A DNA stretch of 64,000 nt from Candidatus Multivoradales bacterium (GCA_965248925.1 CBDFLE010000004.1:32001-96000); one strand, 5' to 3'; counted from the first letter of the stretch, positions 35,210 to 51,002 are shown. Translations and numbers: made by a program. The notes: generated by a model from the sequence alone, not told the origin.

Positions 35210-35447
35210 TGGCGGATGATATCCGATTTTTAGCGGCAGCTGGTGCCACCGGCGCCTGGAAGGGTGAAGTCTTGGGGGTGTGAACTGCCTCTCAAATCGA
35301 CTGGGCCAGAACCAGGGGAGCACGGCACTCGACCATGGGCACCCGATACGAGCACCCATCGACGAGAAAGTGAACTTTACGAAGCTGAGAATCAGCAGCC
35401 GCTGCGGATGTTGCCGAGGCGGTAGGCACGTCGTTGGGGACAGTACC

Positions 35448-35837
35448 CTACCGAGAGCGCCAACTAGCTTCAGGAACAGATCTTGCTACAACATCAATGC
35501 AATCATCATCTGTGAAAATTGCATAGTGAGTCAAGTCGAATTCTTCTAGCACGCCACCACTCTCTCTCTCAAGCCAAGCGACCCACTTAGAGTCTTCCAC
35601 TTCCAGGAGGCCCGGATGCGTCGGTGTTTCAAGCGTCCTCCAAGTCTCAAGCCTGTAACTCTCATCAATGCATCGGTATGCAACAACATCAGTAAATAAT
35701 AAGCGTAGAATATGTTCATTTGCTGTATCAATAAGTAAGAGTTCTAACCCGTCGGCTTCGTCCCTCAAGCTTAAAACGGTGAGTCTATGTGGGATGCCTG
35801 CAAGAGGGAGCCAGTCGCTATATTTCTCAACGTTCAC
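35448..35837 (-). CDS. Putative immunity protein for Rhs toxin tip 3
   Basis: Small acidic ORF of lower GC whose start overlaps the toxin stop. Confidence 0.75.
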   Translation of the reverse strand: MNVEKYSDWLPLAGIPHRLTVLSLRDEADGLELLLIDTANEHILRLLFTDVVAYRCIDESYRLETWRTLETPTHPGLLEVEDSKWVAWLERESGGVLEEFDLTHYAIFTDDDCIDVVARSVPEASWRSR

Positions 35838-37828
35838 TAATCCATCTCCAGAAATCGGATCTTAATCGGATTTGCTCCACCCTGAATCTCAAGCGTAGGC
35901 GAACCGGCTGAACTGCTCGGGCGAACAACAACTGTTCGGCCGTCGGGAAGTGTACCAACTCTGACGCCATTGCCCTTGTCCGTTACACCTTGAAGATGCA
36001 GTGCGTCAAAATCTGCGTTGGCTTGCTGAACTCCACCACTCCTCTCAAATTTCACTGCCCGGCCGTTTCTCATCTGGCCAGGATTTGTCCTCCTAGCGTC
36101 CGCGAGGATGTCATCTAGGCTCCCCCTTGGAACTGCGCGCGATCCCCGTTGAAAGACCTTACCAAGTCGAGCAAAGACAGCAGACAGCTTTGACCCAACA
36201 CTAGGAAGTGCTTTTCGAGTAACAGCGACAACAAGAGTCGTCTCGTCGACTGGCGAGAGAAGGCTGGCAGCAAACAGTGCTCCCATTCCCCGAGCATTGA
36301 TGTTCTCAATGTACTGCTCCTGGGTGATCTCGCCCCGCATCAAGCGCTGTATATCTTGTTCGAGAGCCATCGCCGCACGGCTTTCTCGCCCATTGGGGTC
36401 GATCTCGTTGATCGGGTTGTTTCCCGCATAGGAATAGCGGTTCCAGCTTCCCGGCGCGCTGGGCTTGGCGGACTTCGCCGGATCGACACTCAAGAACCGC
36501 CCCACCACCGGACTGCAATGCCGAGCATGCATGTAGTCCAGCTCGCTCCGGCTGCCTGTGCCCGTCTTGTCTCGCTCATGCCCTGTAAACTTCAGCTGGA
36601 TCTCGTCAGCTCCCGGGTTGGTCGCTTCCTGGCCAAACGGGTAATAGTTGTGCAGCGCCACCTGCTGACCACCCCGAGTGATCTGCCGAGGCGTACCTAA
36701 ATGATCAAGATGGAGATGTGAGGTCATCTCGCCACCGCTACCCTCGGGCTCGATGGTGGCGAGAGGCTGCCCGCCACGATGAACGTAGTCTCGGCTCCAG
36801 CCGAATGCGCCGCCAGCTGGCTGATCGTAGACCCGCAGAACCTCGTTCCCAAGCCCACGCAGGGTCCAGGTGAGGCTGGCGGGCTGGGTGGTGCAGGTGC
36901 TGGTGGCGCCGGGGCCGAAGCAGTCGAAGGTGAGGATCCGCTCGCCCTCTGCGTTGTAGATGTAGACCCGTGCTTGATCGGTGTTCGAGCGCAGGTGCTT
37001 CATCATGTTGGCGCCGTCGAAGGCATAGTCGAAGCTCTCGCTACCGAGGGTGATGTCGGTCAGATTGCCGGCCGCGTCGTATTGAGCGCCCGAGAGGCCG
37101 AGGCGATTGGTGGTGGCGTTGGGGTTGAGGTTGAGAGCCGCGAAACCGGGTGTTGATAGTTGCTGGATGTTGCCGAAATTGTCATAGGTCGCCGTCTGGG
37201 TGAACCGGGTGGCGCCGACGGAGGTCTGGCCGGAGCGTAATCGGCCGAGGCGGTCATAACGATAGTCCAGGTTGCCGATGGCGGAAATATTTCCAGCTCC
37301 GTCGTAGGCGAAGTTACCGCTGCTCCAGCCCGCAGAGGTGGTCAGCTGGTGCGGCCGGGCGAGGCCGTTCAAGCTGCTGACTTCTTGGCTGTCGACCACA
37401 CCATCGCCGTGGGTGAGCTGATGCAGCATGCCACCGCTCTGGTAGGTGAGGTTGTTGGCGAATCCAGGCACGGACCTGAGCATACCCTTTTCGTATTTGA
37501 AACTCACCGTGCGCTGCGGATCGTTGGTGGCACAGCCACCGTCGGCGTGCTGGCAGCTGGGGTAGTCGAGTTGCGACAAATTGCCCTGGGTGTCATACCC
37601 GAATCCCGTGGTGAAGGCGTAGTTGCCGGCGAAGAACTGGTAGCGAGTCTGCTTCTCCGACATCAAGCCCTGGCGACCGCTGTAGCGGAAGCTCTCGGAG
37701 AGCTTGACGTCGAGGGAGCCGGGCTCGGGGGCCAGGGGATTCTGGATGTCAACCCAGTTGTGGCGCACCGTCTGCACCAGCCGAGGCGGGTGGCACGTTG
37801 TTGGCATTGTTGCCGATGTGGGTGGCAT
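35837..37828 (-). CDS. Orphan Rhs module: partial core plus C-terminal toxin tip 3
   Basis: About 430 aa nearly identical to the main Rhs, DPNG cleavage motif, unrelated tip; translation start doubtful. Confidence 0.85.
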   Translation of the reverse strand: MPPTSATMPTTCHPPRLVQTVRHNWVDIQNPLAPEPGSLDVKLSESFRYSGRQGLMSEKQTRYQFFAGNYAFTTGFGYDTQGNLSQLDYPSCQHADGGCATNDPQRTVSFKYEKGMLRSVPGFANNLTYQSGGMLHQLTHGDGVVDSQEVSSLNGLARPHQLTTSAGWSSGNFAYDGAGNISAIGNLDYRYDRLGRLRSGQTSVGATRFTQTATYDNFGNIQQLSTPGFAALNLNPNATTNRLGLSGAQYDAAGNLTDITLGSESFDYAFDGANMMKHLRSNTDQARVYIYNAEGERILTFDCFGPGATSTCTTQPASLTWTLRGLGNEVLRVYDQPAGGAFGWSRDYVHRGGQPLATIEPEGSGGEMTSHLHLDHLGTPRQITRGGQQVALHNYYPFGQEATNPGADEIQLKFTGHERDKTGTGSRSELDYMHARHCSPVVGRFLSVDPAKSAKPSAPGSWNRYSYAGNNPINEIDPNGRESRAAMALEQDIQRLMRGEITQEQYIENINARGMGALFAASLLSPVDETTLVVAVTRKALPSVGSKLSAVFARLGKVFQRGSRAVPRGSLDDILADARRTNPGQMRNGRAVKFERSGGVQQANADFDALHLQGVTDKGNGVRVGTLPDGRTVVVRPSSSAGSPTLEIQGGANPIKIRFLEMD
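36480..37781. repeat. 1.3-kb direct repeat of the rhs core (second copy 46555-47856)
   Basis: Both ends align at the same 10075-bp offset; encoded proteins nearly identical. Confidence 0.92.
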
Positions 37829-37841
37829 GCCTGATGGAACC

Positions 37842-38300
37842 CTAGTCGGGCAGCGCCCTCAGAATATCCATGATGCCGGAGTAGTAGCTGCTCTCCTGTG
37901 GAGAAATCGATTTCATTTTGGAAAAAAAATGTAGGCCTGCCCTCTTGAAAGCTTCGAAAAATTCCATAGAGTACGCCTCAATTTCCTTTGATTCTCCATC
38001 CCACTCTAGCTTCATGACAACTCTCTGTGCCTTCTGAAAGTAGAGCACCGAGATGTCGATAGGCTGATCCGGGAAAGAAGTCGTGGCCTTCCCGTATTTC
38101 TTAGCTCTCGCAAGGCAGTCGACGACAAGTGACCAAAGCACTTCAATCAAGTCGCCATACTCTTCATCCATCAGTGTTCGAGAATCGCTGGAGACAAGAA
38201 GAACTCCGGCCAAGTACTCCGGGTCATGAATAAGCTGATCAAATTCATCCAAGGGAACAAAGTTCCCATTCTGTAGAAGAAGCGTACGAACAGAAACCAT
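37842..38300 (-). CDS. Putative immunity protein for Rhs toxin tip 2
   Basis: Lower-GC 152-aa ORF whose ATG overlaps the toxin stop. Confidence 0.75.
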   Translation of the reverse strand: MVSVRTLLLQNGNFVPLDEFDQLIHDPEYLAGVLLVSSDSRTLMDEEYGDLIEVLWSLVVDCLARAKKYGKATTSFPDQPIDISVLYFQKAQRVVMKLEWDGESKEIEAYSMEFFEAFKRAGLHFFSKMKSISPQESSYYSGIMDILRALPD

Positions 38301-39397
38301 CAGGCAGCACCTTCAGGAAATGCGGTGACGATTCGTCCGCGACGAACCACTACTCGATACACGATTCCATCAACGGTACCTCTCAAGACGACTCTCAAGT
38401 CGCTCCCTAACGCCATCCTGTTTCTGTTCTGCTGCAGCACGGCCCCAATTATCCCGGTGAGATCTTCGATCTTGCTACTGTCCGCAAAGAAACTCTGTAC
38501 TTTTGAGACTGACCCGTCCCAAAATTGGGGGTGATGCCGGCTCAAAATATGAGTCAGACCCTTGCGGTCAAGCTGAACAACGTTCTTTCCAAATCTGAAT
38601 CTTGTTGCTCGTATTCCTCGAGTTGCATTGGCGACTTTCTGTGGGCGAGCTACCCGAAGAAACAGCCTTGATGCCCGGGCAACCTTGACAGAAGCTGATG
38701 CTCCTCCAGGGATCCCAGGTACACTTGTCGCAGCTAAATCTAATGCGAGCGCTACGCTATCAACGATCACGCCACCTACATTTCCTGAGACGATATTCGT
38801 TGCCAAACTGGCAGTGCCGATGCTGACATTCGCTACATCCCAGACGGTTTCTATCGCCCGCCCATCCGGGTCGACAAAATTTATCGGACCGTTGGCACCG
38901 TATGTATATCGATTCCAGCTCTGTGGATGTGGAGTTGTGGCCGACTTCGCCGGATCCACACTCAAAAACCGCCCCACCACCGGGCTGCAATGCCGAGCAT
39001 GCATATAGTCCAGCTCGGAGCGGCTGCCGGTCCCGGTCTTGTCCCGCTCATGACCAGTGAATTTCAGCTGAATCTCATCCGCCCCCGAGTCGGTCGCCTC
39101 CTGGCCAAACGGGAAGTAGCCGTGCAACGCCACCTGCTGTCCGCCTCGGGTGAAGGGGACAGCCCGACGCGGTTTCCAGCTTGAGAGCTGGTAACCCTCT
39201 ATGCCTGTTCTACTTAAGCCTCGCTCGGCCCTACTGCCGGCGGGGTCTTGGTGCTCGAAGGTCCAGAGGCGAGTTTCGGCGTAGCTCGACTCGGAGATCG
39301 GCGCGATCGCTGTTGCCGGCATCGTCACCGCCAGGAGCGCGACGACCAGCCCGAGCGCCATCGTCCAAGTGCTTCTTCCTTTAGCTGCCTGCCTCAT
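38300..39397 (-). CDS. Signal-peptide leader fused to an Rhs-associated core end and toxin tip 2 (EndoU-like nuclease?)
   Basis: Signal peptide, then TRGGQQVALH...KFTGHERD...DPDGR, tip with HILSRHHP...GRIVTAFP. Confidence 0.8.
   Translation of the reverse strand: MRQAAKGRSTWTMALGLVVALLAVTMPATAIAPISESSYAETRLWTFEHQDPAGSRAERGLSRTGIEGYQLSSWKPRRAVPFTRGGQQVALHGYFPFGQEATDSGADEIQLKFTGHERDKTGTGSRSELDYMHARHCSPVVGRFLSVDPAKSATTPHPQSWNRYTYGANGPINFVDPDGRAIETVWDVANVSIGTASLATNIVSGNVGGVIVDSVALALDLAATSVPGIPGGASASVKVARASRLFLRVARPQKVANATRGIRATRFRFGKNVVQLDRKGLTHILSRHHPQFWDGSVSKVQSFFADSSKIEDLTGIIGAVLQQNRNRMALGSDLRVVLRGTVDGIVYRVVVRRGRIVTAFPEGAA
39122..39153. repeat. 32-bp perfect direct repeat bounding the element (partner 46725-46756)
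   Basis: GTGCAACGCCACCTGCTGTCCGCCTCGGGTGA in both places; rhs homology stops abruptly at 39153. Confidence 0.9.
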
Positions 39398-39861
39398 GCC
39401 GGGCCATTCTACGCCGCGGGTGGCGCTCGAAGACAGCGGCTAAAGGAGGAAGGGTGGTTGGTGCGGAGGCGGGATGCGGTTTTCTTAGGCCGCTTTCTTC
39501 GGGCAGTGGGTGTTTTCTTAGGTCGTTTTCGTTGGGCTGGTCGTCGGAGCGAGCGCGGGTCTTTCCGGCAGTTTGGTGCCGGCGGCACAGAGGGCAGCCG
39601 CCAAACCAATCTGCACGTTGGGGGCGTGGTGGCGGCGGGGCCGGAGCCGAGCACGGCGACCGCAGGGCGCCGCGCGCAGGGTACGGAGGCCACGACGCAG
39701 GGCGGGTCTTGGGAGGAGGATGGGGAGCCCCCTTGAGGGGGCGGACGGGTCCGGGCCGAGCCGTCGCAGTGCAAGTCGGTGGATCTCGGCAAGGAGGCCA
39801 AGAGCGGGGCGTGCTTCCGAAGCCGCTGACCTTCGACGGCCACCAACGTGCTCGCCCCAAG

Positions 39862-39887
39862 TTTCCATAATGCACGCGTTATGGAAA
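39862..39887. other. dif/cer-like recombination site
   Basis: TTTCCATAA-TGCACGCG-TTATGGAAA: perfect 9-bp arms with CATAA/TTATG cores and an 8-bp spacer, about 300 bp downstream of the recombinase gene. Confidence 0.7.
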
Positions 39888-40183
39888 GGCCGTAGGCCCG
39901 GAGCCGGGGCGTGTGAGGGCCAGGTCGGATAGGGCGCGCACTATCCGACAGCGACCCATGCAAGCCGCGTGACATCTGGGAGGTCCGAGGAGGGGCCCAG
40001 GTGGCGCGCGGCTTGCGGAGCGGCTGGCCCGTGCCCGGAGGGAGCGCAGCGACCGGAGGGACACACGCCCCGGCGGAGCTTGGGGCGAGCTTTCGGAGAC
40101 TCTTTTCTTGGACTACCTGAAGCCTCGCTCCGGGCCGGTGATCGGAGGGCTCAGGTGGTGGATCGCAGATGCTCGGGCGGGGG

Positions 40184-41257
40184 TCAGTCCTCCGCCTCGG
40201 TCTCGACTACATCGAGTAAGTCCTCGGCGGTCACTTCATCGCTGCCGTCTTCTTCTGTCGGCGGTGCCACCCGCCGCCCTAGCTTCGCGCCCGGATGGGT
40301 TGCCGAGTGGATCGACTTCAGTTTGCGGATCGATACCTGAGTGTAAATCTGCGTCGTCTCCAGCTTGGCGTGGCCGAGCATCTGCTGGATGAAGCGGATA
40401 TCCGCACCACCTTCGAGCATCAGCGTCGCCATCGTGTGGCGGAAGAGATGGCAAGCGCCCGACTTGCCGAGATCGGCGGCGAGCACGTAGCCGCGCACCA
40501 GCTGAGTCATTCGCGACGGCGCAAACGGCGTCCCCTGGTTGGTGAGAAAGAGCGGCCCGCCGTCCGGCTCGACCACCAGCGACGGCCGTACCTCAGTGAC
40601 GTAGCGATCGATCCAGGCCAGCGCCCGCTCGCCGATCGGGATCATCCAATCTTTCCTACCCTTGCCCTGGCGCACCATCACCGTCCCGCGTTCGATGTCG
40701 AGATCGTAACGGCCGAGGCCGATCAGCTCAGCCCGGCGCATGCCCGTGGAGTAGAAGACTTCAAGGATTGTTCGGTCGCGCATCCCGAGCGGGTCGGCGG
40801 TGTCGGGCTGGTTGAGCACCTGGTCGGCTTCAGAGGCGGTCAGCACCGCCGCCGGCAGCCGGTGCTCCAGCTTCGGTAGCTCCAGCTCCGAGGCCGGGTT
40901 GTAGAGCAGGTGGTTGGCCCGAGCCGCCCATTTGAAGAAGGCCCTTACCGGCTCCAGCCGCGAGTGCTGAGCCCGGAAAGACAGCGGCCGCCCATCCTCG
41001 GGCTTGCGGTAGTGGTAGAGCCACCTGGCGTAGCGTTCCAAAATCGGCTTGGTCACGTCCGACGGCCGCGACACTCCACGCTCGTCACACCATGCGATGA
41101 GAAACGAGAGGTATAGATGCCGGTTCTCAACGGTTCGTGGAGAGTAGTTCTTGATCGCCATCCACTCCAGGTACTGACCCGCCATCACCGCGAAGCCCCG
41201 AGGGTCGGTTGGATTGCCCGGCAAGAGGCGGATCTTGCGCTCGCCACGGCGCGGCAT
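40184..41257 (-). CDS. XerC-like tyrosine recombinase of the element
   Basis: YSTGMRRAEL, GKGRKD, HLFRHTMAT, LGHAKLETTQIY catalytic motifs; N-terminal core-binding domain. Confidence 0.92.
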   Translation of the reverse strand: MPRRGERKIRLLPGNPTDPRGFAVMAGQYLEWMAIKNYSPRTVENRHLYLSFLIAWCDERGVSRPSDVTKPILERYARWLYHYRKPEDGRPLSFRAQHSRLEPVRAFFKWAARANHLLYNPASELELPKLEHRLPAAVLTASEADQVLNQPDTADPLGMRDRTILEVFYSTGMRRAELIGLGRYDLDIERGTVMVRQGKGRKDWMIPIGERALAWIDRYVTEVRPSLVVEPDGGPLFLTNQGTPFAPSRMTQLVRGYVLAADLGKSGACHLFRHTMATLMLEGGADIRFIQQMLGHAKLETTQIYTQVSIRKLKSIHSATHPGAKLGRRVAPPTEEDGSDEVTAEDLLDVVETEAED

Positions 41258-44200
41258 CAGGCCCCCTCGACCGCCGCCGAGCCGCCGGTACGACGCCCAG
41301 ATTTACGACATGACGGGCCGTTTTCTCGCACCCCCTTATATGCGTTTTTTGCCGAAACTCCACGATTTCCGGCCGAAGTTGTTGATTCTGCTTGGGAAAC
41401 TGCACCCCGACCACCCCCCGACACCCCCCCGACTTGGGGCCGACTTGGCCCCGACTTCTCAGCTTCAGACCCCGACTTCTTTTCGTCGTACCTGAGTGTT
41501 TCGACCTCGATCAGCCCCGGCAGTCGCGGCCGCTCCGGCTCGTCGCTGGCCACGTAAACCAGCTCGTAGACAAAGCTCTGCCCCCGCCCGCCCTGATGCA
41601 CCAGCAGATACTCAAACTCCTCAAGACGGCGTAGGTGCAGCTTCAGCTGCGTATTGCCCCAGCCGGTGTGCTCGCGCACCGCCCGCCGGCTGAAACGGTA
41701 GTCCGGCCGATCCATCGCCAGCGCCTCACAGGCTTCGCTGACCATCTCGTCGATCAGCCCCAGCAGGCGCCGCGTCTGCGGCGGCAGCTCATCGAGCGAG
41801 CGCCCCAAGACTTCGTGCGCCAGGCGGTTGGCTGTCTCGATGTCTGTGGCCACCACTTCGACGTACTCCACCTCTCGCCCGTCGACCACCGCCAGCTTCA
41901 CCTCTCGCTGGTATTGATGCAAAAGAGCAATCACGTCGATCAGCGTCAGGTACTTCTCGTGGTCCCGGCGGGTGCGGATTTGCGTATCGAGAAAGGTAAG
42001 TTCCGGAGCAAAGGGATTGACCACCGCCAGCGGCCGCAGCAGCCGCTGCGCGTTCTGGTGCAGCGCCATCACCCCGTCGCGCCGGGTGCGCGAGAGTAGC
42101 CCCCCCAGCGTCCGCCGCTGCCGCTGCAGCCGGTGAATCGCCCGCGTCTGCTCTCGCGCCTCGTCCACCGAGAGCACCAAGCAGCGATTCAAAAGCTCTT
42201 CATCGATGTCGATTGCCGTGGTCGTCAAGAAGATCATCACCGGCCCTTCGACGTGGTACTCGTGCGTCACCAGCTTGCCCGTTGAAGCGTCCTTGCCGGT
42301 TGAGGCAATCGTCAGCTCGCCTTCCGATTGGAGCAGCTTCAAGGCGTAGCTAGCCCGCTCGGCGCCTTCCTCCTCGACGATCGCCAGGATCTTGTGCTGC
42401 AGATCCGTTTCGCCCATGTAGAACAGCGATTGCCCGGTCATCGCCGAGTACTTCACTTGCTCCTCACCCGGCATCAGCGACAGAACCGCATCCATCAGCG
42501 CCGACTTGCCGGCCGCCGAGCTCGACTGCACCACCACCGCCAAAGGCCGATCCAGAAAGCGCGAGGTGGCCGCCATATAGCCCATGAGCTTGTTGGTTTC
42601 CTCGCCCACCACCCCGCAGCGCTCGAAGTCCGCGAGGATGCGCACCAAGAGATCTGGTGAGCGCAGCAGCTCAAGCGCCGCTTCCTTCTCTCCCTCTGAC
42701 AGCTCCACCGCCGTCGACTGCGGCTCGAGTGCTGAGCGGATCTGCTCGTCCTGCAGCTCCTCGAGCTTCAGCAGCACCTTGCCCAGATCCTTCTTGACCA
42801 CCTGCTCCTCGACCCCCAGCTCAGCGGCTGCCGCCCGCTGAAACACCGCCCGCGGCCGCGCCGCGTAGAGATCGAAAGTGTCGACGTGGAAGGCGTCGCC
42901 CCGCGACGCCAGGACGTTGACCTTGAGCACGTCGTAGGCCAGATTCTTCGGCAGACCGCGAATGCGGTAGCGGCGATCGCCGAGCGACAAGACCACCTCC
43001 TGGTCGCGCACCTCGGCCGGCATATCTGGCGGAGGCGGTGCGGGCAATGGGGAGGCTTCGGCCGGGGCGACCGGCGCCAATACCGCCTCTGCGGCGGTAT
43101 TAGGCCGTGTCGGTTGCTCTGCCGGCGGTGCCAATGAGCCCACTATGGGCTCGTTGCCCAGTTTCACGTCGGGCGCCTTGCCTTTCCCGAGCCACTGTGC
43201 TTTGCGGATCACCACCCCCAGCGACTTCGCGGCTGGCGTCACCTTCAGCGCATATTCGTTGGCGTCCATGCCGCGCGGAAAGTGAATGCGATAGGCGTCG
43301 ATCCCGGCACCCACCAGCTTCTCGGCCAGCTTCCCGGCGGCCTTCTCGCCGGCATCGTCCCGGTCGTAGGCGATCAGCACCCGCTCGACTCCGTGGCCAC
43401 CGAAGGCTGCCAGCATCTCCGCGGTGAAACCCTGGATGCCGTAGGCGCTGGTGACGTTGCGGTAGCCCGCGCACCAGAAGGTCAGAGCGTCGATCAGCGA
43501 CTCGCAAAGGATGATCTCGGTCGAGGCCACCAGAGCTTCCGCATTGAAGATCCCTCGATGCGGACCCGGCAGATAGAGATGCAAGGGTGTCCCCTTGCGA
43601 AGATTCAGTGTGATCTTTCGGCCGTAGATCTCCACCACCTGGCCTGTTGAATCGAAGACCGGAAAGACGATCGAGCCATTGAAGTGCTCATGACCCGACT
43701 TGCGCAGCACCCCGAGCTTCTGCAATCGACCCCGGATCTCCTTGCCCGCTTTCAGCTGCTTCGATGGCAGCCGGTAGCCCAGCGTTCGGTTGGCGAAGCC
43801 AAGCCGGAAATGCTCGACCATCTCCGGGTGCTTCAGCCCCCGACTCTCCAGGTACGCCAGCGCTTCCGGGCTGTCCTTCAAAGCCTCGTGGTAGTAGCCG
43901 ACGACCTGGCCGAGCAGCTCCGCGTCCTCGACGTCCGCCACCACCGGCGAAGGCAGAGCCGGCGCCGAAGGCCGCGCCTCAGTGACCGCCGCCGCCGGCA
44001 GGTCCGAGCGCAGCAGCTCGACCGCGTGGCGAAACGACACCCCGCGATCTCGCATCACCCAATCGATCACCGAACCGCCCGCTTGGCAGGCGCCCAGGCA
44101 GTGCCAGAGGTTCTTCTTCGGCGAGATCACCAGCGACGGCTCGTGGTCGTCGTGAAACGGACACAGCCCCAGCAGGTCCGCCCCGTGCCGTTTCAGCTCT

Positions 44201-44790: not shown

Positions 44791-44959
44791 CGGTCTGCCT
44801 CCAAATTTCTTCAGTTAACTCAGATGCAACTCATCTGTGCTCTACAGTACCAATCGGTTGCATTGGTGTCAAGCCTGCAATGTCTTGACGCATACCTTCG
44901 GGTTGCCTAGAATTAACTCAGGACGGAAAAAGGCGTACAAGAAAGGACTGGAAGGTTCT

Positions 44960-45331
44960 ATGAGCCAAGAAAGCGGCACGATCAAGACACGGTTCGGCAA
45001 GCGAGTTCTTGAGCTACGCAAGACTCGCAGCTGGAAGCAAGACGAGCTTGGCAAAAAGCTCGGCACTTCGGGCGTCGTCATCGGGCGCTACGAGCGAGGC
45101 GAGGTGATGCCGTCGATCAAGGTGGCTCAGAAGATGGCCGAAGTCTTTGGTGTGACGCTCGACTATTTGGTGGGTGAGCAGGAGGTTCCCAATCTGCTCA
45201 CCCAAAGCGAAATGGTCGAACGGTGGATGACTCTCGACGCTTTGGCGACGAGCGACCGGGACCGTATCCTCTACGTCGTCGACTCGCTCATTAGGGAAGC
45301 CAAGACCCGCCAGGCTTTCGGCGCCTCTTGA
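44960..45331 (+). CDS. XRE-family HTH transcriptional regulator
   Basis: LRKTRSWKQDELGKKLG...IGRYERGEVMPS...FGVTLDYLVG; divergent from the symE-primase-recombinase operon. Confidence 0.9.
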   Translation: MSQESGTIKTRFGKRVLELRKTRSWKQDELGKKLGTSGVVIGRYERGEVMPSIKVAQKMAEVFGVTLDYLVGEQEVPNLLTQSEMVERWMTLDALATSDRDRILYVVDSLIREAKTRQAFGAS

Positions 45332-45498
45332 TCCAATATAGACGGAAACCCGGCTCTCACCGGGCTCGATCAATACAGCTCGCTGATTTCAGTTGGCTTG
45401 CGGCGAAACGCCTTCTGGCACCTCCGCAGCAGGCCGATGGACTCATCCGAGACGCACGTACCCGGCAGTCCTACGCCGCTACTTGAGCCCAGATGCAC

Positions 45499-45524
45499 GA
45501 AAGCCCGGCATCAGCCGGGCTTTC
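45499..45524. terminator. Hairpin between the convergent HTH and immunity genes, possible terminator
   Basis: GAAAGCCCGGC-ATCA-GCCGGGCTTTC, perfect 11-bp stem. Confidence 0.6.
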
Positions 45525-45565
45525 TGCGAAACGGTTGGCACCTGGCTGGCCGCTCAGGCACCTAC

Positions 45566-45889
45566 CTAAGAAGCGCTCCTGTACCGTTGCACCAGCTCCC
45601 TACATACTTTTAGGATCTCCGCTCGTATTTCGTTGAGGTAGGCGGCGACTGCCTCATCCTTCCTTCTCAGTGACTCCTCCGACCAATGCAAGCGAGTTTC
45701 GCCAAAAGGAATGTCCTCCGTTTCGGACTCAACAGCAACAATCGGTGCGAAGAGCACATCATCTCTCTCATCGAGTCGGCCAGCGAGTTGCACTAGTTGT
45801 CGGCTACCCTCCACAATACCAACATCACCCGATAGCACCTGCCGTGCTTTGTCAGCAATTCGAGCTTCAATAGACGTAGAAAGTTTCAT
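45566..45889 (-). CDS. Putative immunity protein for the main Rhs toxin (DUF2489-like)
   Basis: Directly follows the rhs stop; IVEGSRQL...ESETEDIPFG..R..W pattern. Confidence 0.75.
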   Translation of the reverse strand: MKLSTSIEARIADKARQVLSGDVGIVEGSRQLVQLAGRLDERDDVLFAPIVAVESETEDIPFGETRLHWSEESLRRKDEAVAAYLNEIRAEILKVCRELVQRYRSAS

Positions 45890-45911
45890 TCTTAAGATCC
45901 TAGCCTTTGTT

Positions 45912-48900
45912 CTATTGGAACTTCGTCTTCAGCTCAACGATTTCTCCTGTCCTCACGTTCCGATAGGCATGGACCTCAAAACTCGCGCCGTCTGCGGCCT
46001 TGAAGTTCGAACTTCGAATTTTAGCCCAATCACCTCTTGATCCACCGTACTGCCTCGCAAGGCGGTCGACATCACGAATTGGGACTCGCCCGCCTGCGCC
46101 TGCTATTGTCCGACCACCGCCGTTAGCAAGTTCGCCAACTTGCTGTTCACTTGCAAGCTGCTTCTGGAGCCTAAGCCTATTCGCTGCGCTCCGCGCTCCC
46201 GCTGTCCCATCTGCGCCCGCTCTAGCTGCGTCAGCAGCAGCAGCTGACTTCTTCAGTTTCTTTGCATTTCTTACGGCTCCTACGAGCTTCGCTCCCCTAC
46301 CAGCCACCTTCAATAGCCCAAGACCTGTGGCACCAGCCACTGCTCCGGTGACGAAAGCCCCGGCTACGCCTGTTGTGAGCTCTTCCCCTGAAAGCGCGTT
46401 GCTCGCAATTTGAATCCCAACATCTACGACTCCGCCAAGAAATGCAGTTACCAGAAACCCAAGCCTTCCGTCCGGGTCTACCTGGTTGATTGGACTGTTG
46501 CTGACGTAAGAGAAGCGATTCCAACTCTGTGGTGAGGACCGGCTACCCAGAGATGGATCCACACTCAAGAACCGCCCCACCACCGGGCTGCAATGCCGAG
46601 CATGCATGTAGTCCAGCTCGCTCCTCACCCCGGTCCCGGTCTTGTCTCGCTCGTGCCCGGTGAACTTCAGCACAACCTCGTCCTGGGCCAAGTTGGTGGC
46701 CTCCTGACCAAACGGGTAGTAGTTGTGCAACGCCACCTGCTGTCCGCCTCGGGTGATCTGCCGGGGTGTGCCCAGGTGATCAAGATGGAGATGCGACGTC
46801 ATCTCGCCACCGCTACCCTCGGGCTCGATGGTGGCGAGGGGCTGCCCGCCGCGATGGACGTAGTCTCGACTCCAGCTGAAGGCGCCGCCAGCTGGCTGAT
46901 CGTAGACCCGCAGGACCTCATTGCCGAGCCCGCGCAGGGTCCAGGTGAGGCTGGCGGGCTGGGTGGTGCAAGTGCTGGTGGCGCCGGGGCCGAAGCAGTC
47001 GAAGGTGAGGATCCGCTCGTCGCTGGCGTTGTAGATGAAGACCCGCGCTTGATCGGTGTTCGAGCGCAGGTGCTTCATCATGTTGGCGCCGTCGAAGGCG
47101 TAGTCGAAGCTCTCGCTGCCGAGGGTGATGTCGGTCAGATTGCCGGCCGCGTCGTATTGAGCGCCCGAGAGGCCGAGGCGGTTGGTGGTGGCGTTGGGGT
47201 TGAGGTTGAGAGCCGCGAAACCGGGTGTTGATAGTTGCTGGATGTTGCCGAAATTGTCATAAGTCGCCGTCTGGGTGAACCGGGTGGCACCAACGGAGGT
47301 CTGGCCGGAGCGTAATCGGCCGAGGCGGTCATAACGGTAGTCCAGGTTGCCGATGGCGGAGATATTGCCGGCTCCGTCGTAGGCGAAAATGCCGCTGCTC
47401 CAGCCCGCGGAGGTGGTCAGCTGATGCGGCCTGGCGAGGCCGTTGGAGCTGCTGACTTCCTGGGTGTCAACCACGCCATCGCCGTGGGTGAGCTGATGCA
47501 GCATGCCACCGCTCTGGTAGGTGAGGTTGTTGGCGAAGCCGGGCACGGACCTCAGCATACCCTTCTCGTAGTTGAAATTCACCGTGCGCTGCGGATCGTT
47601 GGTGGCGCAGCCGCCGTCGGCGTGTTGGCAGCTGGGGTAGTCGAGTTGCGACAAATTGCCCTGGGTGTCATAGACGAAACCGGTGGTGAAGGCGTAGTTG
47701 CCGGCGAAGAATTGGTAGCGGGTCTGCTTCTCCGACATCAGGCCCTGACGACCGGTGTAGCGGAAGCTCTCGGAGAGCTTGACGTCGAGGGAGCCGGGCT
47801 CGGGGGCCAGGGGATTCTGGATGTCCACCCAGTTGTGGCGCACGGTCTGCACCAGCTTCCCGGCCCGGTGGTCGCTGCCAGAGTTGGTGCGGGCGTAGCG
47901 GAACTGCTTCTGCAAGCGCGGAGTGCTCCCCACGCCATTGCTCGATTCGAGGACTCTGATCAGTCGGCCGGCGGCGTCGAAATCGAAGCTCAGATCGAAG
48001 GCGGTGCTGCCGATCAGGTCTTTGGAGATGGCGTTGCCGCCGGCGTCAAAGCGGTAATCGATGCGGCCATTGCCCGAGGGGCCGATCTCGGGATGGGTCT
48101 CGGAGAGTAGGAAACCGCGACCGTCATAGTCGAACAAGCGGGTCTGGCCGCAGGTCGAGCCGCTGAGGTTCTGGCACACTTTGGTCAGTCTGCCACCATC
48201 GTCATAGGAATAGCGGGTCAGCAGACCGCCACCACCACAGCTGCCAGACCAGGCGGCGGAACTGCCCTCGCAGACCTCGGCCAGACGGCCCTGGCCGTCC
48301 ATGATCTCGGTGACGTAGGTGTCTTGCTGGCCACTGGTCAGCTGCACTTTGAAGCGCCGGGTCTGCACCCGGTCGCCCTGGTAGGTGAAGAAGGTCGCCG
48401 GCTGTTCTGGCGGCTTGACCCGGCCGGGGCGGCCGAAGCGGTCGTAGGCGAGGTAGGTCGTGCGCCGGCTTTCGCCGGCCGCGGAGGCGGTGGTCCACAC
48501 CGACTCGTCCGTCTTCCAGTGACGCGGGTTCCAGGTCGTGTAGCGATGCCAGAGCTCGGTCTGGCCAGCGTTGGCGACGGGGATGCGCACGGTTTCTTGC
48601 AGCCGCCGGCCGAGGCCGTCGTAGCGGTGCTCGCGGAAGCTCATCAGATCGGTGCCGCTGCAGGAGGTCTGGAAGGGCTGGCACTGTTGCTCGGTGAGCT
48701 TGGGGGCAAGACCGGGGTTGGCGGTGGTGGGCAGGGTGTAGGTCCACTGGGTCCAGCCCAGCTCGGCCGGGCGCTGGCCGGTCAAGCGGCCTAGGCGATC
48801 GTAGGTAAAGCTGGTGCCCAGGCCCGCTGCGTCGCGGCTGGTGGCCACCAGGCCGGTGTCTGAGTCGATGTCGTAGTCGGCCAGGGTGAGGATCGCGGTG

Positions 48901-51002
48901 CCGGTGCAGTCCACCGCCGTCGACTTGCGCAGGCTGCCACTGGCGTAGACGTGGTCGGTGCGGTAGGTCGGGCCGGACAAGCTGAGGCTGCACAAGGAGC
49001 CGGTGCCGAGGTTCTGGGTGTCGCCGCCATAGACCCGCTGGCGGGTGACGAAGCCGTTGCTCGAGGTGAGGAGGCTCACCACGTCGCGGCTCTGGCGATT
49101 GCTACCGGCCAGCTGGCGGCGGCGTTCGAGGAAGCCGGTGGTGCTGCTGAAGCAGAACTCAGCCTTCTCGGTGGTCCCGCCTTCGCTCACCGACTGCTCG
49201 TCCCAGGTCTCCAAGATCCAGCGTGCGTTGTGGCTTGGCAGCACGAAATCGGTTGCCGGATCGATCGAGCTGTCCTCGGGGTTGGCGATGATGTAGGTGC
49301 CGCTGTTGGCGTTGTAGGTGGTGCTGCTGGTGCGCACGTTGGCGGCGCCGAAGCTGCCGCCGGTGGTCATGGTGCGGAAGTGGCCCAGGCCATCGAAGTC
49401 CGAGAAGGTGACTTCGCGGACCTTGCCGCCGTCGTCGTGGAAGGTCTCCTTGCGGTAGCGCAAGCGGTGGGCTTTCTCGTTGTAGTTGCCGGCGTCGCGG
49501 CCATCGCTGTCGAACTCAACGAAGATCGAGCGGAGCTTGGTTCCGCCAGCGTTGAAGAGTTCTTGGGAAAGGAAGGGGCCGGCTTCTGAGAAGCTGCCAC
49601 TGATGGGATCGCAGTAGGTGTAGGGCAGGCCATAGGACCAGCGATTGTTGGCGCCGACGGTGGAGAAATAGCTCACCGTCTCGAAGCCCAGCGGATCAGT
49701 CACTTTCATCGAGTGGAAGCAGGGGTGGCCCAGCGGATCGCCGGGGGCTTGCGGGTTTGCGGTGTCGTAGGTGTAGCTCCAGGTGGCGTAGGGGGTGGTG
49801 TCGCCGTCGTCGAGGAAGAGATGCTTGCTCTTGACTCCCCGCGCCACCGTGCCCCAATCGGGAGCGTGGAAGAGGTCGGCCAGCTGGGTTTGGAAGGGGA
49901 AGAGCTGGTAGTCGTAGCCGTAGGCGCCGCCGGTGGGCAAGCGCAGCTTCGACAAGCCGCCCGAGAGCAGGTTGTCGACAGTCAGGTAGTCCATCTCGTA
50001 GAACGAACCGTCGGGCAACACCACCCGGTCGAGCACCTGGGTGGTGAGGGTGTGCTCGGCTATCGGCACGCAGCCGGGACGGAAGCCGAACTGCCGTTCT
50101 AGAGTTTCGGTGCGGTACTGAAAGAGGAAGGTCGAGTTGCTTTGGCTGCCGAAGGCTTCGAGCCTCACCGTAGCGACTCTGCCACCGACAAAATCCACCG
50201 TGTGAGTGCGCCCTTGGCTGTCGGTCAATGTCCAGTCGCCATCGTTGGCATAGCGCACATTGATCCAATTGCCGAAGCGATCCTCCATCCGCGTCAGGCG
50301 CCAGAGATCGCCGACGGAGGCGTAGTTATGGAACTCATGCAGCTCGCCGCCAGAAAATTCTACCGTGTAGCAGCTCTGATCGACAAAGGTGCCAGACGGC
50401 AGCTCGCACACCCCCGGATTGCGCTTGCGTAGACGGAGGTACGTGCTGTCGTTGGTGAACCAGGTGCTGGGCTGCGGTGTCGCCGGGAAGCCGCCGGGAT
50501 GCAGCTCGGTATAAAACCTGTGCTCGCCGCCACTTGGATCGACGTAAATCTCAGGCGTTGTCGTCGGACTGTTACGTGGCGCGATCAGCTCTCCTAGGCT
50601 GACTCTCCAGCCGAAGCCGGCCTGCGTCTTGAGATCCTGGATCGGCAGGCTGTAGGTACGCAGCGCGAAGGGCGGATTGATGTCTTGACATTGGTGATTC
50701 TCATCGTACTCCCAGCCACCGGAGCTGTACGAGGCGGTCAGGCTGAAGCTGAGCGACGGGCCGACCGGATAGGTGATGCCGATCGGTAGAGATACGGTCA
50801 GGCTGCCGTTGAAGAGATTGATCTGATCCAGGTCGCCAATCTGGTAGGCGGTGTCGGCGGTCACTCCGCGCTGGTGGCTCGGGGGGAGTTGCGCGGTCAG
50901 CGGCAGGGCGATGCAGAGGCCGAGAAGTAAGAAGCTGAGAGGCAGAATCTGCCACGTCTGAAGTAGGAGATATTCGGTACTGAGGAAAAATTTTCGGTGC
51001 AT
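45912..51002 (-). CDS. Full-length RHS/YD-repeat polymorphic toxin with Sec signal peptide
   Basis: Signal peptide (LLLGLCIALPLTA-Q), many YD repeats, HLDHLGTPR, KFTGHERD, DPDGR, divergent C-terminal tip. Confidence 0.93.
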   Translation of the reverse strand: MHRKFFLSTEYLLLQTWQILPLSFLLLGLCIALPLTAQLPPSHQRGVTADTAYQIGDLDQINLFNGSLTVSLPIGITYPVGPSLSFSLTASYSSGGWEYDENHQCQDINPPFALRTYSLPIQDLKTQAGFGWRVSLGELIAPRNSPTTTPEIYVDPSGGEHRFYTELHPGGFPATPQPSTWFTNDSTYLRLRKRNPGVCELPSGTFVDQSCYTVEFSGGELHEFHNYASVGDLWRLTRMEDRFGNWINVRYANDGDWTLTDSQGRTHTVDFVGGRVATVRLEAFGSQSNSTFLFQYRTETLERQFGFRPGCVPIAEHTLTTQVLDRVVLPDGSFYEMDYLTVDNLLSGGLSKLRLPTGGAYGYDYQLFPFQTQLADLFHAPDWGTVARGVKSKHLFLDDGDTTPYATWSYTYDTANPQAPGDPLGHPCFHSMKVTDPLGFETVSYFSTVGANNRWSYGLPYTYCDPISGSFSEAGPFLSQELFNAGGTKLRSIFVEFDSDGRDAGNYNEKAHRLRYRKETFHDDGGKVREVTFSDFDGLGHFRTMTTGGSFGAANVRTSSTTYNANSGTYIIANPEDSSIDPATDFVLPSHNARWILETWDEQSVSEGGTTEKAEFCFSSTTGFLERRRQLAGSNRQSRDVVSLLTSSNGFVTRQRVYGGDTQNLGTGSLCSLSLSGPTYRTDHVYASGSLRKSTAVDCTGTAILTLADYDIDSDTGLVATSRDAAGLGTSFTYDRLGRLTGQRPAELGWTQWTYTLPTTANPGLAPKLTEQQCQPFQTSCSGTDLMSFREHRYDGLGRRLQETVRIPVANAGQTELWHRYTTWNPRHWKTDESVWTTASAAGESRRTTYLAYDRFGRPGRVKPPEQPATFFTYQGDRVQTRRFKVQLTSGQQDTYVTEIMDGQGRLAEVCEGSSAAWSGSCGGGGLLTRYSYDDGGRLTKVCQNLSGSTCGQTRLFDYDGRGFLLSETHPEIGPSGNGRIDYRFDAGGNAISKDLIGSTAFDLSFDFDAAGRLIRVLESSNGVGSTPRLQKQFRYARTNSGSDHRAGKLVQTVRHNWVDIQNPLAPEPGSLDVKLSESFRYTGRQGLMSEKQTRYQFFAGNYAFTTGFVYDTQGNLSQLDYPSCQHADGGCATNDPQRTVNFNYEKGMLRSVPGFANNLTYQSGGMLHQLTHGDGVVDTQEVSSSNGLARPHQLTTSAGWSSGIFAYDGAGNISAIGNLDYRYDRLGRLRSGQTSVGATRFTQTATYDNFGNIQQLSTPGFAALNLNPNATTNRLGLSGAQYDAAGNLTDITLGSESFDYAFDGANMMKHLRSNTDQARVFIYNASDERILTFDCFGPGATSTCTTQPASLTWTLRGLGNEVLRVYDQPAGGAFSWSRDYVHRGGQPLATIEPEGSGGEMTSHLHLDHLGTPRQITRGGQQVALHNYYPFGQEATNLAQDEVVLKFTGHERDKTGTGVRSELDYMHARHCSPVVGRFLSVDPSLGSRSSPQSWNRFSYVSNSPINQVDPDGRLGFLVTAFLGGVVDVGIQIASNALSGEELTTGVAGAFVTGAVAGATGLGLLKVAGRGAKLVGAVRNAKKLKKSAAAADAARAGADGTAGARSAANRLRLQKQLASEQQVGELANGGGRTIAGAGGRVPIRDVDRLARQYGGSRGDWAKIRSSNFKAADGASFEVHAYRNVRTGEIVELKTKFQ

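Follow-up and report, generated by a model that had tools for sequence, protein, structure and literature searches.

Architecture of an rhs locus in Candidatus Multivoradales bacterium suggests a probable integrative element with Rhs toxin tips as cargo

Orphan Rhs tips of Salmonella are reportedly activated by deletion or duplication between resident repeats, with no mobile element, incoming DNA or leader. In the accessible portion of Koskiniemi et al. (2014; PMC3967940), this compares with the locus described here in that a downstream tip is fused to the main rhs gene via shared core. The model of Jackson et al. (2009; PMC2935791), according to the available excerpt, assumes an episomal circle with a core fragment and a new tip, which integrates into a chromosomal rhs gene through one crossover and displaces the former tip to a downstream position; the result is a series of dissociated tips whose core fragments differ in length. 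In the same excerpt, the circle has no genes of its own and relies on RecA, and its origin and stability are left open. Kawano, Aravind and Storz (2007; PMC1891008), in the parts of the article consulted, located SymE, cHTH and Prim-Hel genes in 'mobile islands', next to genes for haemagglutinins and RHS proteins. Both the gene neighbourhood (2007) and the proposed episomal tip circle (2009) are already in print; no description of the present element as the vehicle of the 2009 circle was found in the literature. If the reading given below is true, the element may be the carrier of the new toxin tips predicted in 2009.

The window, that is, the whole stretch of DNA analysed here, comprises 64,000 nt of Candidatus Multivoradales bacterium (GCA_965248925.1 CBDFLE010000004.1:32001-96000), and all positions refer to it unless a contig is named. 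Its anatomy is the same as that of the Jackson model as excerpted, except that here the circle would bear genes, namely those for a primase-helicase, a recombinase and regulators, together with a leader. The gene set also equals that of the neighbourhoods of Kawano et al. (PMC1891008), including the optional second SymE and the fusion of a DnaG primase with an MCM-like helicase. The consulted parts of that paper frame the set as context for a toxin-antitoxin-like family and hold no recombinase, rhs fragment, tip cargo or mechanism. The legend of their Fig. 7 does contain the link between this gene cluster and rhs loci that the preliminary description of the window had made. We consider it likely, with considerable reserve, that window positions 39154-46756 (7,603 bp) represent, in integrated form, one copy of a widespread integrative element, which can probably also replicate as a circle. 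Its features are collected in Table 1.

Table 1. Features of the rhs locus, in window positions.
Feature	Positions	Strand	Basis and remarks
Main rhs gene: signal-peptide-like N-terminus, YD-repeat core, core end and tip1	45912-51002	-	ORF 45912-51062, likely start 51002, 1716 aa
32-bp repeat, copy 1; rhs core/cargo junction, attL-like	46725-46756	-	Exact match to 39122-39153
Remaining Rhs-associated core end (to DPDGR), travels with tip1	46530-46724	-	Alignment; TIGR03696 match
tip1	45912-46529	-	Paralog-shared part, then unique C-terminal toxin domain of no known family; GC down to 53-56%
imm1, candidate immunity gene	45566-45889	-	ORF; single copy in genome
Conserved left end of backbone, just past imm1 stop	45332-45557	-	Sequence comparison of copies
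XRE / Cro-cI type regulator, divergent from replication-recombination operon	44837-45331	+	HTH_3, E 1.3e-14
Two overlapping SymE-family (AbrB-fold) ORFs	44494-44790 and 44277-44540	-	PF08845 (SymE_toxin)
Primase-helicase: CHC2 zinc finger, DnaG core and Toprim, then MCM-like AAA+ half	41257-44277	-	Pfam, TIGR01391, AF2/Foldseek
XerC-like tyrosine recombinase	40184-41257	-	PF00589 (Phage_integrase), E 2e-36; NF002331
26-nt palindrome	39862-39887		Repeat search; at edge of invariant block
Nearly invariant block of ~710 bp (distal gap, leader, 32-mer)	39122-39831	-	Copy comparison
Leader: ATG and signal-peptide-like stretch, 81 codons in frame with Rhs end	39154-39397	-	ORF
32-bp repeat, copy 2; leader/displaced-tip junction, attR-like	39122-39153	-	Exact match to copy 1
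Rhs core end and tip2	38300-39121	-	Weak Ntox10 / EndoU-like matches below cut-off
imm2, candidate immunity gene	37842-38300	-	ORF
Classical orphan: rhs core fragment of ~1.3-1.4 kb, core end and tip3	35837-37828	-	ORF; 93% aa identity to rhs residues 1069-1533
imm3, candidate immunity gene	35448-35837	-	ORF; 32% match adjoining a tip3-like tip in Massilia locus L050

ORF calls and profile searches bore out the gene order of the preliminary description. The minus strand carries the rhs core, a 32-bp repeat, tip1, imm1, the backbone, a second 32-bp repeat, tip2, imm2, a 1.3-kb rhs fragment, tip3 and imm3; within the backbone (XRE regulator, two SymE-like genes, primase-helicase, XerC-like recombinase, palindrome and leader), the XRE gene alone lies on the plus strand. 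The 1716-aa rhs ORF matches RHS_repeat (PF05593, E 3.9e-14) and has paralogs of 88-97% identity elsewhere in the genome, and the displaced tips downstream carry core fragments of the same clade. We read the paralog-shared part of tip1 as a hydrophobic pre-toxin part. Directly 3' of the three tips lie candidate immunity ORFs of 107, 152 and 129 aa, for which profile searches gave no known family above cut-off. The left end of the backbone recurs with 96.9-100% identity at five other places, each beside different immunity genes, and a remnant of it is present at C6:4017392-4017613.

The backbone probably forms a repressor-controlled operon, in which a divergent XRE gene is followed by the SymE-like, primase-helicase and recombinase genes. 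The XRE regulator, with a promoter-like site at 44885-44913, scores 75.6 bits against the RstR family, below the cut-off of 80. The SymE-like ORFs reach 31.7 bits (44494-44790) and 46.4 bits (44277-44540) against SymE_toxin (PF08845, cut-off 29), with a weak match to NF010128. Pfam recognises Zn_ribbon_DnaG, DNAG_N and Toprim in the primase, and for the helicase half (AF2 model, pLDDT 68.6) the top Foldseek matches are all MCM proteins (MCM2-7 and archaeal; E 2e-10, TM ~0.4). The protein is a DnaG-type primase fused to a predicted MCM-like hexameric-helicase fold. The recombinase gene, whose start overlaps the primase stop, ends ~1 kb before the right 32-bp repeat; its product scores 429 bits against NF002331 (cut-off 371) and shows candidate R, HxxR, H and Y residues, which we take to be the catalytic motif of tyrosine recombinases.

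The 32-mer occurs exactly twice in the window, with a spacing of 7,603 bp, and both copies read TRGGQQVALH in frame, as first described. It is not an isolated repeat as it had then appeared; the two exact copies are the perfectly identical opening of a homologous stretch of ~230-290 bp, ~78-85% alike, which codes for the Rhs-associated core end up to DPDGR. By our own arithmetic, 32 straight matches at ~85% identity have p ~0.005, so the repeat exceeds what chance would give. TIGR03696 (cut-off 32.5) gives 58.7 bits for leader-tip2 and 35.2 bits for the tip1 segment; DPDGR or DPNGR closes the core end, beyond which the tips are unrelated. Leader and tip2 form one ORF (38300-39397), whose homology to any rhs core begins exactly at 39153. 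The leader itself, with a basic N-terminus, ~20 hydrophobic residues and ATA|IAP, resembles a signal peptide and is identical at 244 of 244 positions in 12 copies. It lies within the ~710-bp block, which is nearly invariant across these copies, although the rest of them differs by 2-12%. A promoter scan before the leader gave no sigma-70-like promoter. In the gap region, direct and inverted repeats are present; the presumed dif-like site proved to be a near-perfect palindrome. Comparable CATAAY..RTTATG palindromes follow xer in 17 of 69 relatives.

The unit boundaries could be deduced from other copies in the same genome. A tblastn search found 15 backbone copies or partial copies, which by our count represent 14 backbones, one of them split by an insert. 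Every copy follows an rhs core or another copy: rhs with seven on C5, rhs with three on C6, and singles, two on C6, one at C4:254186 and the one in the window. Copies of the same backbone type have the same tip before them (twice) and different tips after them. The circle drawn in the preliminary description corresponds to the actual repeat unit, namely 32-mer, tip, immunity gene, backbone and leader. When units are cut at the 32-mer, C5u6 = C5u7, C5u2 = C6x1 and C5u4 = C5u5 (over 6.7 kb) are pairs of 100% identity; two loci, one on C5 and one on C6, share a 7,542-bp unit at 100% identity, which begins at base 1 of the 32-mer. Likewise, C6 3495909-3504001 matches C5 974206-966114 at 99.94% from exactly this base, upstream of which one copy has an rhs core and the other a leader. 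An element-free rhs paralog is 100% identical to the C6x1 core over 800 bp up to the 32-mer, and 80-90% thereafter. C5u1 and C6x1 have 1 kb of identical core upstream in common, so this pair could result from segmental duplication or gene conversion rather than from two integrations. Four runs of one sample hold the sequence as short-read contigs; their contigs, which break at every repeat and therefore cannot confirm junctions, contain no circle junction, empty rhs-tip2 allele or 'go back' joint.

Relatives of the element occur in many phyla (88 copies in 78 loci), and in 63 of 65 the recombinase follows the primase. The survey of backbone homologs suggested by the preliminary description found them enriched beside Rhs ends: of the 33 copies whose upstream flank is long enough, 17 have an Rhs end on the same strand in the 5 kb before them, compared to 576 of 20,000 random windows (2.9%), and 16 of 28 have one in the 3.5 kb after them. 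Rhs-end matches are on the element's strand in 77 of 78 cases. Immediately ahead of the Rhs homology, the element closes with a conserved DNA motif of ~90 bp, whose reading frame differs between loci (27 matches in 21 loci, all element-oriented); in Massilia locus L050, three motif-led tip cassettes follow one backbone. A second lineage, G016, has an rhs head and four units with junctions at one shared core, where the leader type tracks the upstream backbone and a perfect inverted repeat (8-6-8) forms the junction. Visual inspection shows CCCCT-N6/7-AGGGG-like repeats across the junction in four lineages whose downstream sequences are unrelated.

In E. coli, relatives are found in 56 of 5,426 complete genomes, at rhs loci and at a median of four places; strain SCU-113 has them in tandem at two different rhs loci. 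No in-frame start was found upstream of the arm in the E. coli relatives. Among circular public records that hold the backbone, Shigella flexneri plasmid unnamed3 (8,758 bp) is equal to a single repeat unit of the SCU-113 chromosome, and Lonsdalea populi plasmid unnamed1 (11,289 bp) carries xerC, primase, HTH, SymE and RelE/DinJ genes with two cassettes, each composed of ~30 aa of an Rhs end, a nuclease toxin and an immunity gene, in a record without a full rhs gene. Such small circular records could also be assembler collapses of tandem arrays. Of the initial proposal of a replicating element that swaps Rhs tips, the widespread mobile family tied to rhs 3' ends, the unit boundaries and the circular records of relatives hold, whereas the circle and its replication in the present case are what we infer.

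These data suggest the following course. The cargo would be an Rhs tip cassette, consisting of the last ~75 rhs core codons, the toxin domain and the immunity gene, and after excision and during replication as a circle, it would be read from the element's own leader, which supplies a start codon and a signal-peptide-like stretch. One crossover where the rhs fragment begins, in the present case inside the 32-mer's first ~10 bases, would insert the circle into the chromosome. This would join the full-length resident core in frame to tip1, with imm1 behind it, and the old tip2/imm2 pair would be pushed downstream, where it is now in frame with the leader and may still be expressed. The target sequence would be rebuilt at both ends, so that further copies could enter and form tandem arrays. 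As to selection, carriers would kill non-carriers, and loss of the element would mean loss of imm1.

We tentatively propose that the element's own recombinase makes the crossover, at a site spanning the leader end and the first arm bases, with the arm providing host-matched homology. Alternatively, in the same element and with the same Campbell-type tip swap, host RecA could cross over in the rhs arm, as in the model of Jackson et al. (2009), and the XerC-like enzyme would only resolve circle multimers at the gap palindrome; this is the main alternative, although it appears rather unlikely. Arm length varies from ~60 bp to 2.2 kb across the family, and the joining point falls between positions 2 and 75 of an Rhs-end profile of 109 positions and lies inside the toxin region in one lineage. 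The claim that the conserved rhs core end is targeted is to be qualified accordingly. The arm always matches the local rhs clade, and the palindrome between xer and leader in some relatives would suit multimer resolution. The invariant 710-bp block reflects strong homogenisation, indicating that homologous recombination is clearly active here and points to frequent homologous exchange, which alone could yield arrays and sharp-looking boundaries. A further argument against a recombinase site is that the inverted repeat across the window's junction (39136-39147 / 39152-39163) is imperfect, with 10 of 12 positions matching; its left arm is the leader's last bases, and the right arm consists of normal rhs coding sequence, which differs from copy to copy. 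However, RecA would have to act on short and diverged arms (81-94 bp at 78-84% identity in E. coli; 32 identical bp and then ~85% here), and the last G016 junction keeps just 19 cargo-like bases in common. Moreover, wobble variants within the 32-mer and core-end stretch go with the downstream tip or cargo, no hybrid arms were found among the compared copies, and crossovers appear to be confined to the first bases of the arm. The frame-independent motif abutting the junction is likewise unexpected for RecA.

It is improbable that the backbone is an ordinary integrative element which just happens to insert into or next to rhs orphan arrays, perhaps at some site within the leader block, with the tips being resident rather than cargo and the arrays arising by unequal crossing-over. 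Such landing would fit rhs loci as known hot spots for insertion sequences (ISEc1 sits within the E. coli arrays, and other inserts lie within C5u1, C5u4 and C5u5), and 16 of 33 copies lack an Rhs end in the 5-kb upstream flank. In contrast, cargo and backbone travel as one, the circular Lonsdalea record combines the backbone with Rhs-end-toxin-immunity cassettes, and the Rhs fragments downstream of xer are all on the element's strand, directly past its conserved end. Elsewhere, the same backbone lies 3' of a cdiA-like gene accompanied by VENN-type orphans, and this favours a functional connection with polymorphic toxins.

Still less probable is a host-domesticated, integron-like system, in which the recombinase would shuffle motif-bounded tip cassettes for the host and the replication genes would be relics. 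The element does resemble integrons in its Xer-related tyrosine recombinase, in the use of resident upstream signals by the new cassette with older ones stored downstream, and in the motif-bounded cassettes of L050. Unlike integrons, it replaces the 3' end of a gene in frame, each unit has its own recombinase and replication genes, and the recombinase fails the integrase models (TIGR02249, 100.6 bits against a cut-off of 265; NF011946, 69 against 435), so it was rejected as IntI. Domestication is also at odds with a patchy distribution (5 of 30 relatives), many near-identical copies, primase and recombinase ORFs intact in nearly all of them, and a primase-helicase ~60% identical across phyla compared to ~25-35% for rhs cores. 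The same holds for the relaxase and coupling-protein genes that some relatives carry. That the repeats and arrays are artefacts of assembling a repeat-rich metagenome bin can practically be dismissed: although the short-read contigs break at every repeat, dozens of assemblies made independently, complete E. coli chromosomes among them, show the same architecture, and in the runs the unique cargo segments have the same depth as the flank.

The integrative element preferred here has partial likenesses elsewhere. CTX-phi-type elements (IMEX) form tandem arrays, have an RstR-type repressor and integrate via host XerCD at dif with no recombinase of their own. The present element shares the arrays, the RstR-like repressor and Xer-type chemistry; membership was rejected because it encodes its own recombinase, sits inside rhs rather than at dif and is without phage morphogenesis genes. 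P4 and PICI satellites are small integrative elements with an integrase, a divergent repressor and a primase-helicase, all of which recur here, as well as packaging or helper-hijack genes. PHROGs searches with five backbone proteins returned only primase, integrase and regulators, with no packaging, helper-hijack or phage morphogenesis genes, and this, together with the polymorphic toxin tip as cargo and target and the MCM-like helicase, speaks against membership. Polyimmunity loci and the rAID clusters of Bacteroidales are further comparable systems. In the accessible part of Zhang et al. (2012; PMC3482391), polyimmunity loci contain immunity genes but no toxins competent for delivery, and neither a replication module nor an rhs-fragment arm is mentioned; they adjoin XerC/D recombinases, similar to the Xer-like recombinase beside stored toxin-immunity material found here. 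Both the Lonsdalea record and a Salmonella plasmid carry toxin-antitoxin pairs 3' of xerC.

The organization of the locus is best explained by a replicon-like element that, on strong though indirect evidence from sequence comparison, probably fuses its own toxin tip to the rhs core, displacing the previous tip. The element (positions 39154-46756) consists of a 32-bp repeat (32-mer), tip1 with its immunity gene imm1, a backbone encoding an XRE regulator, two SymE-like proteins, a primase-helicase and a XerC-like recombinase, and a leader. The gene order given for the minus strand at 35.4-51.0 kb in the preliminary description is borne out by open reading frames (ORFs) and domain matches. The two 32-mers claimed there are the only occurrences in the window, lie 7,603 bp apart and are indeed read in frame as TRGGQQVALH in both ORFs. 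Their identity holds, but they are not isolated repeats, each opening a homologous stretch of ~230-290 bp (~78-85%) that encodes the Rhs-associated core end up to DPDGR. All rhs matches of the leader ORF start exactly at 39153, and the GC content of the tips, 48-56%, lies below that of their surroundings. An Rfam search of window positions 38900-46000 gave no match at E values up to 1.

Features of the window locus and places of the element copies in the same genome (contigs C4, C5 and C6)
Feature	Position	Strand	Match or remark
rhs gene	45912-51002/51062	minus	RHS_repeat, E 3.9e-14
imm1	45566-45889	minus	ORF
XRE regulator	44837-45331	plus	HTH_3, E 1.3e-14
Two overlapping SymE-family ORFs	44277-44790	minus
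DnaG-type primase fusion	41257-44277	minus
Tyrosine recombinase	40184-41257	minus	PF00589, E 2e-36
Gap, 786 bp	between recombinase ORF and leader-tip2 ORF		GC-rich
Leader-tip2 ORF, 365 aa	38300-39397	minus	signal-peptide-like leader, then Rhs core end and tip2
imm2, then 663-aa rhs fragment with tip3, then imm3	after leader-tip2 ORF	minus
Window copy	window
rhs and 7 copies	C5
rhs and 3 copies	C6
Single copy	C6:1.34 Mb
Single copy	C6:3.62 Mb
Copy in a more distant rhs clade	C4:254 kb		leader fused to ~2.2 kb of core

The N-terminal half of the 1006-aa primase fusion carries CHC2 zinc-finger, DnaG-core and Toprim domains. No Pfam family matches the C-terminal half, and sequence and profile searches of this helicase half against PDB sequences returned nothing below E 0.4. 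When it was modelled from 31 sequences (mean pLDDT 68.6), the best structural matches were all MCM2-7 or archaeal MCM chains (E 2e-10, TM ~0.4); the predicted MCM-like character agrees with the 2007 description by Kawano et al. (PMC1891008), as far as the available text of that paper goes. Matches in a phage collection are confined to the DnaG part, at 25-28%. The recombinase exceeds the cut-off of the NCBIfam XerC subfamily model (429 bits versus 371), and the XRE protein scores just below the RstR-family cut-off. A promoter-like site lies ahead of the likely XRE start, and starts overlap the preceding stops at SymE-b/primase and primase/recombinase; this points to a single operon running divergently from the repressor gene.

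The window's own genome (8.0 Mb, 6 contigs) contains 15 backbone copies or partial copies by tblastn, with 14 backbones counted, and every copy comes after an rhs core or after another copy. The common backbone begins directly behind the imm stop (45557) and reaches as far as the leader end (39154), and within the arrays a given backbone type has the same tip before it and different tips after it. Several rhs paralogs have classical orphans, that is, displaced tips with a core fragment, without the element. Cutting the arrays at the 32-mer revealed identical units: C5u6 and C5u7 agree at 100% over 7,854 bp, C5u4 and C5u5 at 100% over 6.7 kb, and C5u2 and C6x1, on different contigs, at 100% over 7,542 bp. 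C5u1 is the same unit as the last two, interrupted by a 2.9-kb insert; it also shares 1 kb of identical upstream core with C6x1, which counts against a simple reading.

The insert in C5u1 (C5:977241-980139) splits the primase gene, with 8 overlapping bases at the break, and C5u4 and C5u5 have extra DNA (~2.1 kb and ~5 kb) between the recombinase gene and a near-invariant block. Neighbouring units are often identical pairs (C5u6/u7, C5u4/u5, C5u1/u2, and u1/u2 and u3/u4 of G016, a second Thermoanaerobaculia genome), which would fit dimer integration or recent unequal exchange. At an rhs-tip-imm locus without a backbone (C6:4017200-4017613), a 389-bp remnant comprising the backbone left end and the XRE 3' end is 98.5% identical to window 45169-45557 and looks like the scar of element loss after tip installation.

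The near-invariant block spans ~710 bp (distal gap, leader and 32-mer; window 39122-39831) and is nearly 100% identical in 12 copies of this genome, whereas the neighbouring genes differ by 2-12% (recombinase up to 5%, primase up to 12%). This, too, counts against a simple reading: homologous exchange among copies is clearly frequent. The block could be a product of concerted evolution, or it could contain a cis-acting site or an RNA, none of these being a firm explanation.

The junction between core and cargo is sharp. Near-identity between C6 and C5 units begins exactly at base 1 of the 32-mer, with rhs core upstream in one copy and leader in the other; an element-free rhs paralog is 100% identical to the C6x1 core over 800 bp up to the 32-mer and 80-90% identical beyond it. 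Two variable wobble positions inside the 32-mer co-segregate with the downstream cargo. This sharp boundary, together with the wobble positions tracking cargo, places crossovers in the first ~10 bases of the 32-mer. In G016, an rhs head is followed by four units. Unit 1 matches unit 2 at 100%, unit 3 is almost identical to unit 4, and the leader type tracks the upstream backbone. At all five G016 junctions the common core lies within a perfect 8-6-8 inverted repeat, the leader/cargo boundary falling at the edge of its left arm. The last of them keeps only 19 cargo-like bases before unrelated DNA, and the leader is joined there to the toxin region itself, not to an Rhs end. The window junction has an imperfect inverted repeat (39136-39147/39152-39163, 10/12), and a CCCCT-N6/7-AGG(G/T)G arrangement with unrelated downstream sequence was seen by eye in the C4:254 kb copy and in the relative L001.

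The inverted repeat does not hold as a universal junction feature, being convincing only in acidobacterial lineages. The elements of proteobacterial and other relatives instead end in a ~90-bp motif that stops 1-17 nt short of the Rhs homology (27 nhmmer matches in 21 of 78 loci, always in element orientation), and its conserved hexamers fall in different reading frames at different loci, which marks it as a DNA-level signal. The 'dif-like' site of the preliminary description corresponds to a real repeat, a 26-nt palindrome just outside the invariant block, whose identity as a recombinase site is uncertain; of 69 relatives, 17 have a comparable palindrome behind the recombinase gene. As a unit boundary the palindrome is disfavoured by G016, where leader type tracks the upstream backbone. 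The inverted repeat, the end motif and the palindrome are candidate recombinase sites, none of them certain. A fixed att position within Rhs is ruled out by junction variation across the family: Rhs homology after the element starts anywhere from profile position 2 to 75, and therefore the arms, the rhs-end fragments behind the junction, range from ~20 codons to whole core fragments. Within the full model, the element's recombinase quite possibly acts at a site at the leader end; that RecA acts in the arm instead is somewhat less likely. In one Massilia sp. locus (L050, 14463-18236), three tip cassettes led by the end motif stand behind a single backbone; they resemble integron cassettes, or footprints left where backbones were lost.

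Relatives of the primase-helicase were found at more than 546 loci (~60% identical) in a collection with one genome per species, in Acidobacteriota, several proteobacterial classes, Myxococcota, Nitrospirales, Chloroflexi-type bins and others, and for the MCM-like half alone, 2,124 cluster representatives match at E 1e-30 or better. We kept 78 loci with 88 copies, in which the recombinase follows the primase in 63 of the 65 copies with enough sequence. Rhs ends, detected by a profile built from Rhs ends in the same data, lie on the same strand within 5 kb upstream in 17 of the 33 copies with a 5-kb flank and, for 16 of 28, within the 3.5 kb that follow the recombinase; this compares with 576 of 20,000 random 5-kb windows of the window's own, very rhs-rich genome. 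With looser denominators, in which short flanks count where a match is present, the values are 38/55 upstream and 26/41 downstream; 77 of 78 Rhs-end matches share the element's strand. At least 9 loci have copies in tandem, and the element is present in 5 of 30 relatives of the window's genome, in several of them more than once. Ralstonia megaplasmids carry a 62%-identical copy inside an rhs locus.

On a Salmonella plasmid (L096; pCFSAN006171_1, CP074295.1 86504-105329), an HTH-primase-xerC backbone with a ParD/RelE pair lies directly behind a cdiA-like ORF and is followed by ORFs beginning at VENN-like motifs (VENN-type orphan modules). Because of this position between the two, the element family seems to serve CDI toxins too. 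Larger relatives (L009, L013/L014 and L069) have a TrwC relaxase between cargo and primase, L013 also a TrwB-type coupling protein; they are candidate mobilisable versions and a possible transfer route. The window copy has neither relaxase nor coupling protein.

Two circular database records are what a circular form should look like at the sequence level. 'Plasmid unnamed1' of Lonsdalea populi N-5-1 (11,289 bp) has xerC, primase, HTH and SymE genes, a RelE/DinJ pair and no full rhs gene; each of its two cassettes has ~30 residues of an enterobacterial-type Rhs end (…DPIG..GG…NP..W.DPFGL), then a toxin (one HNH, one non-specific endonuclease) and then an immunity gene. Shigella flexneri 'plasmid unnamed3' (8,758 bp) is 99.0% identical over 8,670 bp to one chromosomal repeat unit of E. 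coli SCU-113. It is possible that such small circular records are collapsed tandem arrays. Likewise, L056, an 8,521-bp contig with a 28-bp terminal direct repeat, and L064, a 7,136-bp contig on which two occurrences of the end motif, one near each end, lie 7,009 bp from each other, may each be either a circle or a collapsed array.

Among 5,426 complete E. coli genomes, 56 carry the element, always on the chromosome and at a median of 4 places. SCU-113 carries tandem copies at two loci, one behind a vgrG-linked rhs gene and the other behind a second rhs gene, which lies between ybfA/kdp and ybgA. At the first locus, PGAP calls 'RHS core' fragments of 84-87 bp behind each xerC; the arms there are 81-94 bp long and 78-84% alike, with identical first 13 bases, and the element-linked arms have no upstream in-frame start codon. 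The E. coli locus searched for an empty site is rearranged by ISAs1 elements and gave no clean empty allele.

The four sequencing runs containing the stretch come from one sample and give short contigs that end at every repeat, so that junctions could not be bridged; they list no joint of a circle, of an empty site or of the 'go back' type. Unique cargo has summed contig depths of 4.2-4.8, 12.6-17.7 and 13.3-14.2, the flank depths being 3.3, 12.8 and 17.3, with no sign of an amplified episome, contig depth not being copy number. The backbone is ~10-fold deeper, as expected for ~12-14 genomic copies.

Rhs and CDI toxins rank among the major weapons with which bacteria compete, and their tips are exchanged and pile up as 'orphans'. 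The vehicle that brings new tips has been in question since at least 2009. Jackson et al. 2009 (PMC2935791) proposed episomal circles, each with a core fragment and a tip, whose integration through homologous recombination displaces the tip already in place; they predicted a pool of episomal tips and noted that no integrase was known beside rhs. Zhang et al. 2012 (PMC3482391) place XerC/D genes next to polyimmunity loci. The gene cluster that the preliminary description mentions near rhs loci of other bacteria is in print in the Figure 7 legend of Kawano et al. 2007, where SymE-cHTH-Prim-Hel neighbourhoods, in some cases with a second SymE, are drawn next to haemagglutinin and RHS genes. The preliminary description knew of no account of the mechanism, and full-text searches outside subscription journals found no paper that presents this element as a carrier of Rhs tips.

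Taking these data together, we tentatively propose that small self-replicating elements with their own recombinase, one family across many phyla, are the missing episomal vehicle of C-terminal displacement in Rhs and apparently CdiA proteins. In each, a piece of the delivery gene matched to the host would precede a toxin tip and an immunity gene, and the element's tip would be spliced in frame onto the host's own delivery protein. Integration would be a hybrid of site-specific and homology-guided recombination, using a one-sided conserved site plus a homology arm, and the displaced tip would be re-armed with the element's own leader. Spread could follow a 'greenbeard' logic, in which non-carriers are killed by carriers and immunity is lost on curing. 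The target and cargo logic is unusual for an otherwise known kind of integrative, replicative element. If the element is the vehicle, it explains the source of new tips, the varying length of core fragments on displaced tips and the directionality of arrays. Such a mobile element would owe the expression and delivery of its cargo to the in-frame replacement of a host gene's 3' end. Since relatives occupy rhs loci of ordinary E. coli isolates, the question of Rhs diversification is testable at the bench.

In L097 and L098 (both SCU-113), L093 and L095, RefSeq calls the recombinase 'xerC', and the primase-MCM fusion is entered as 'DNA primase' or as 'CHC2 zinc finger protein'. A genome can therefore seem to have several xerC genes; such pipeline labels hide the element, and the helicase in the second domain goes unnamed.
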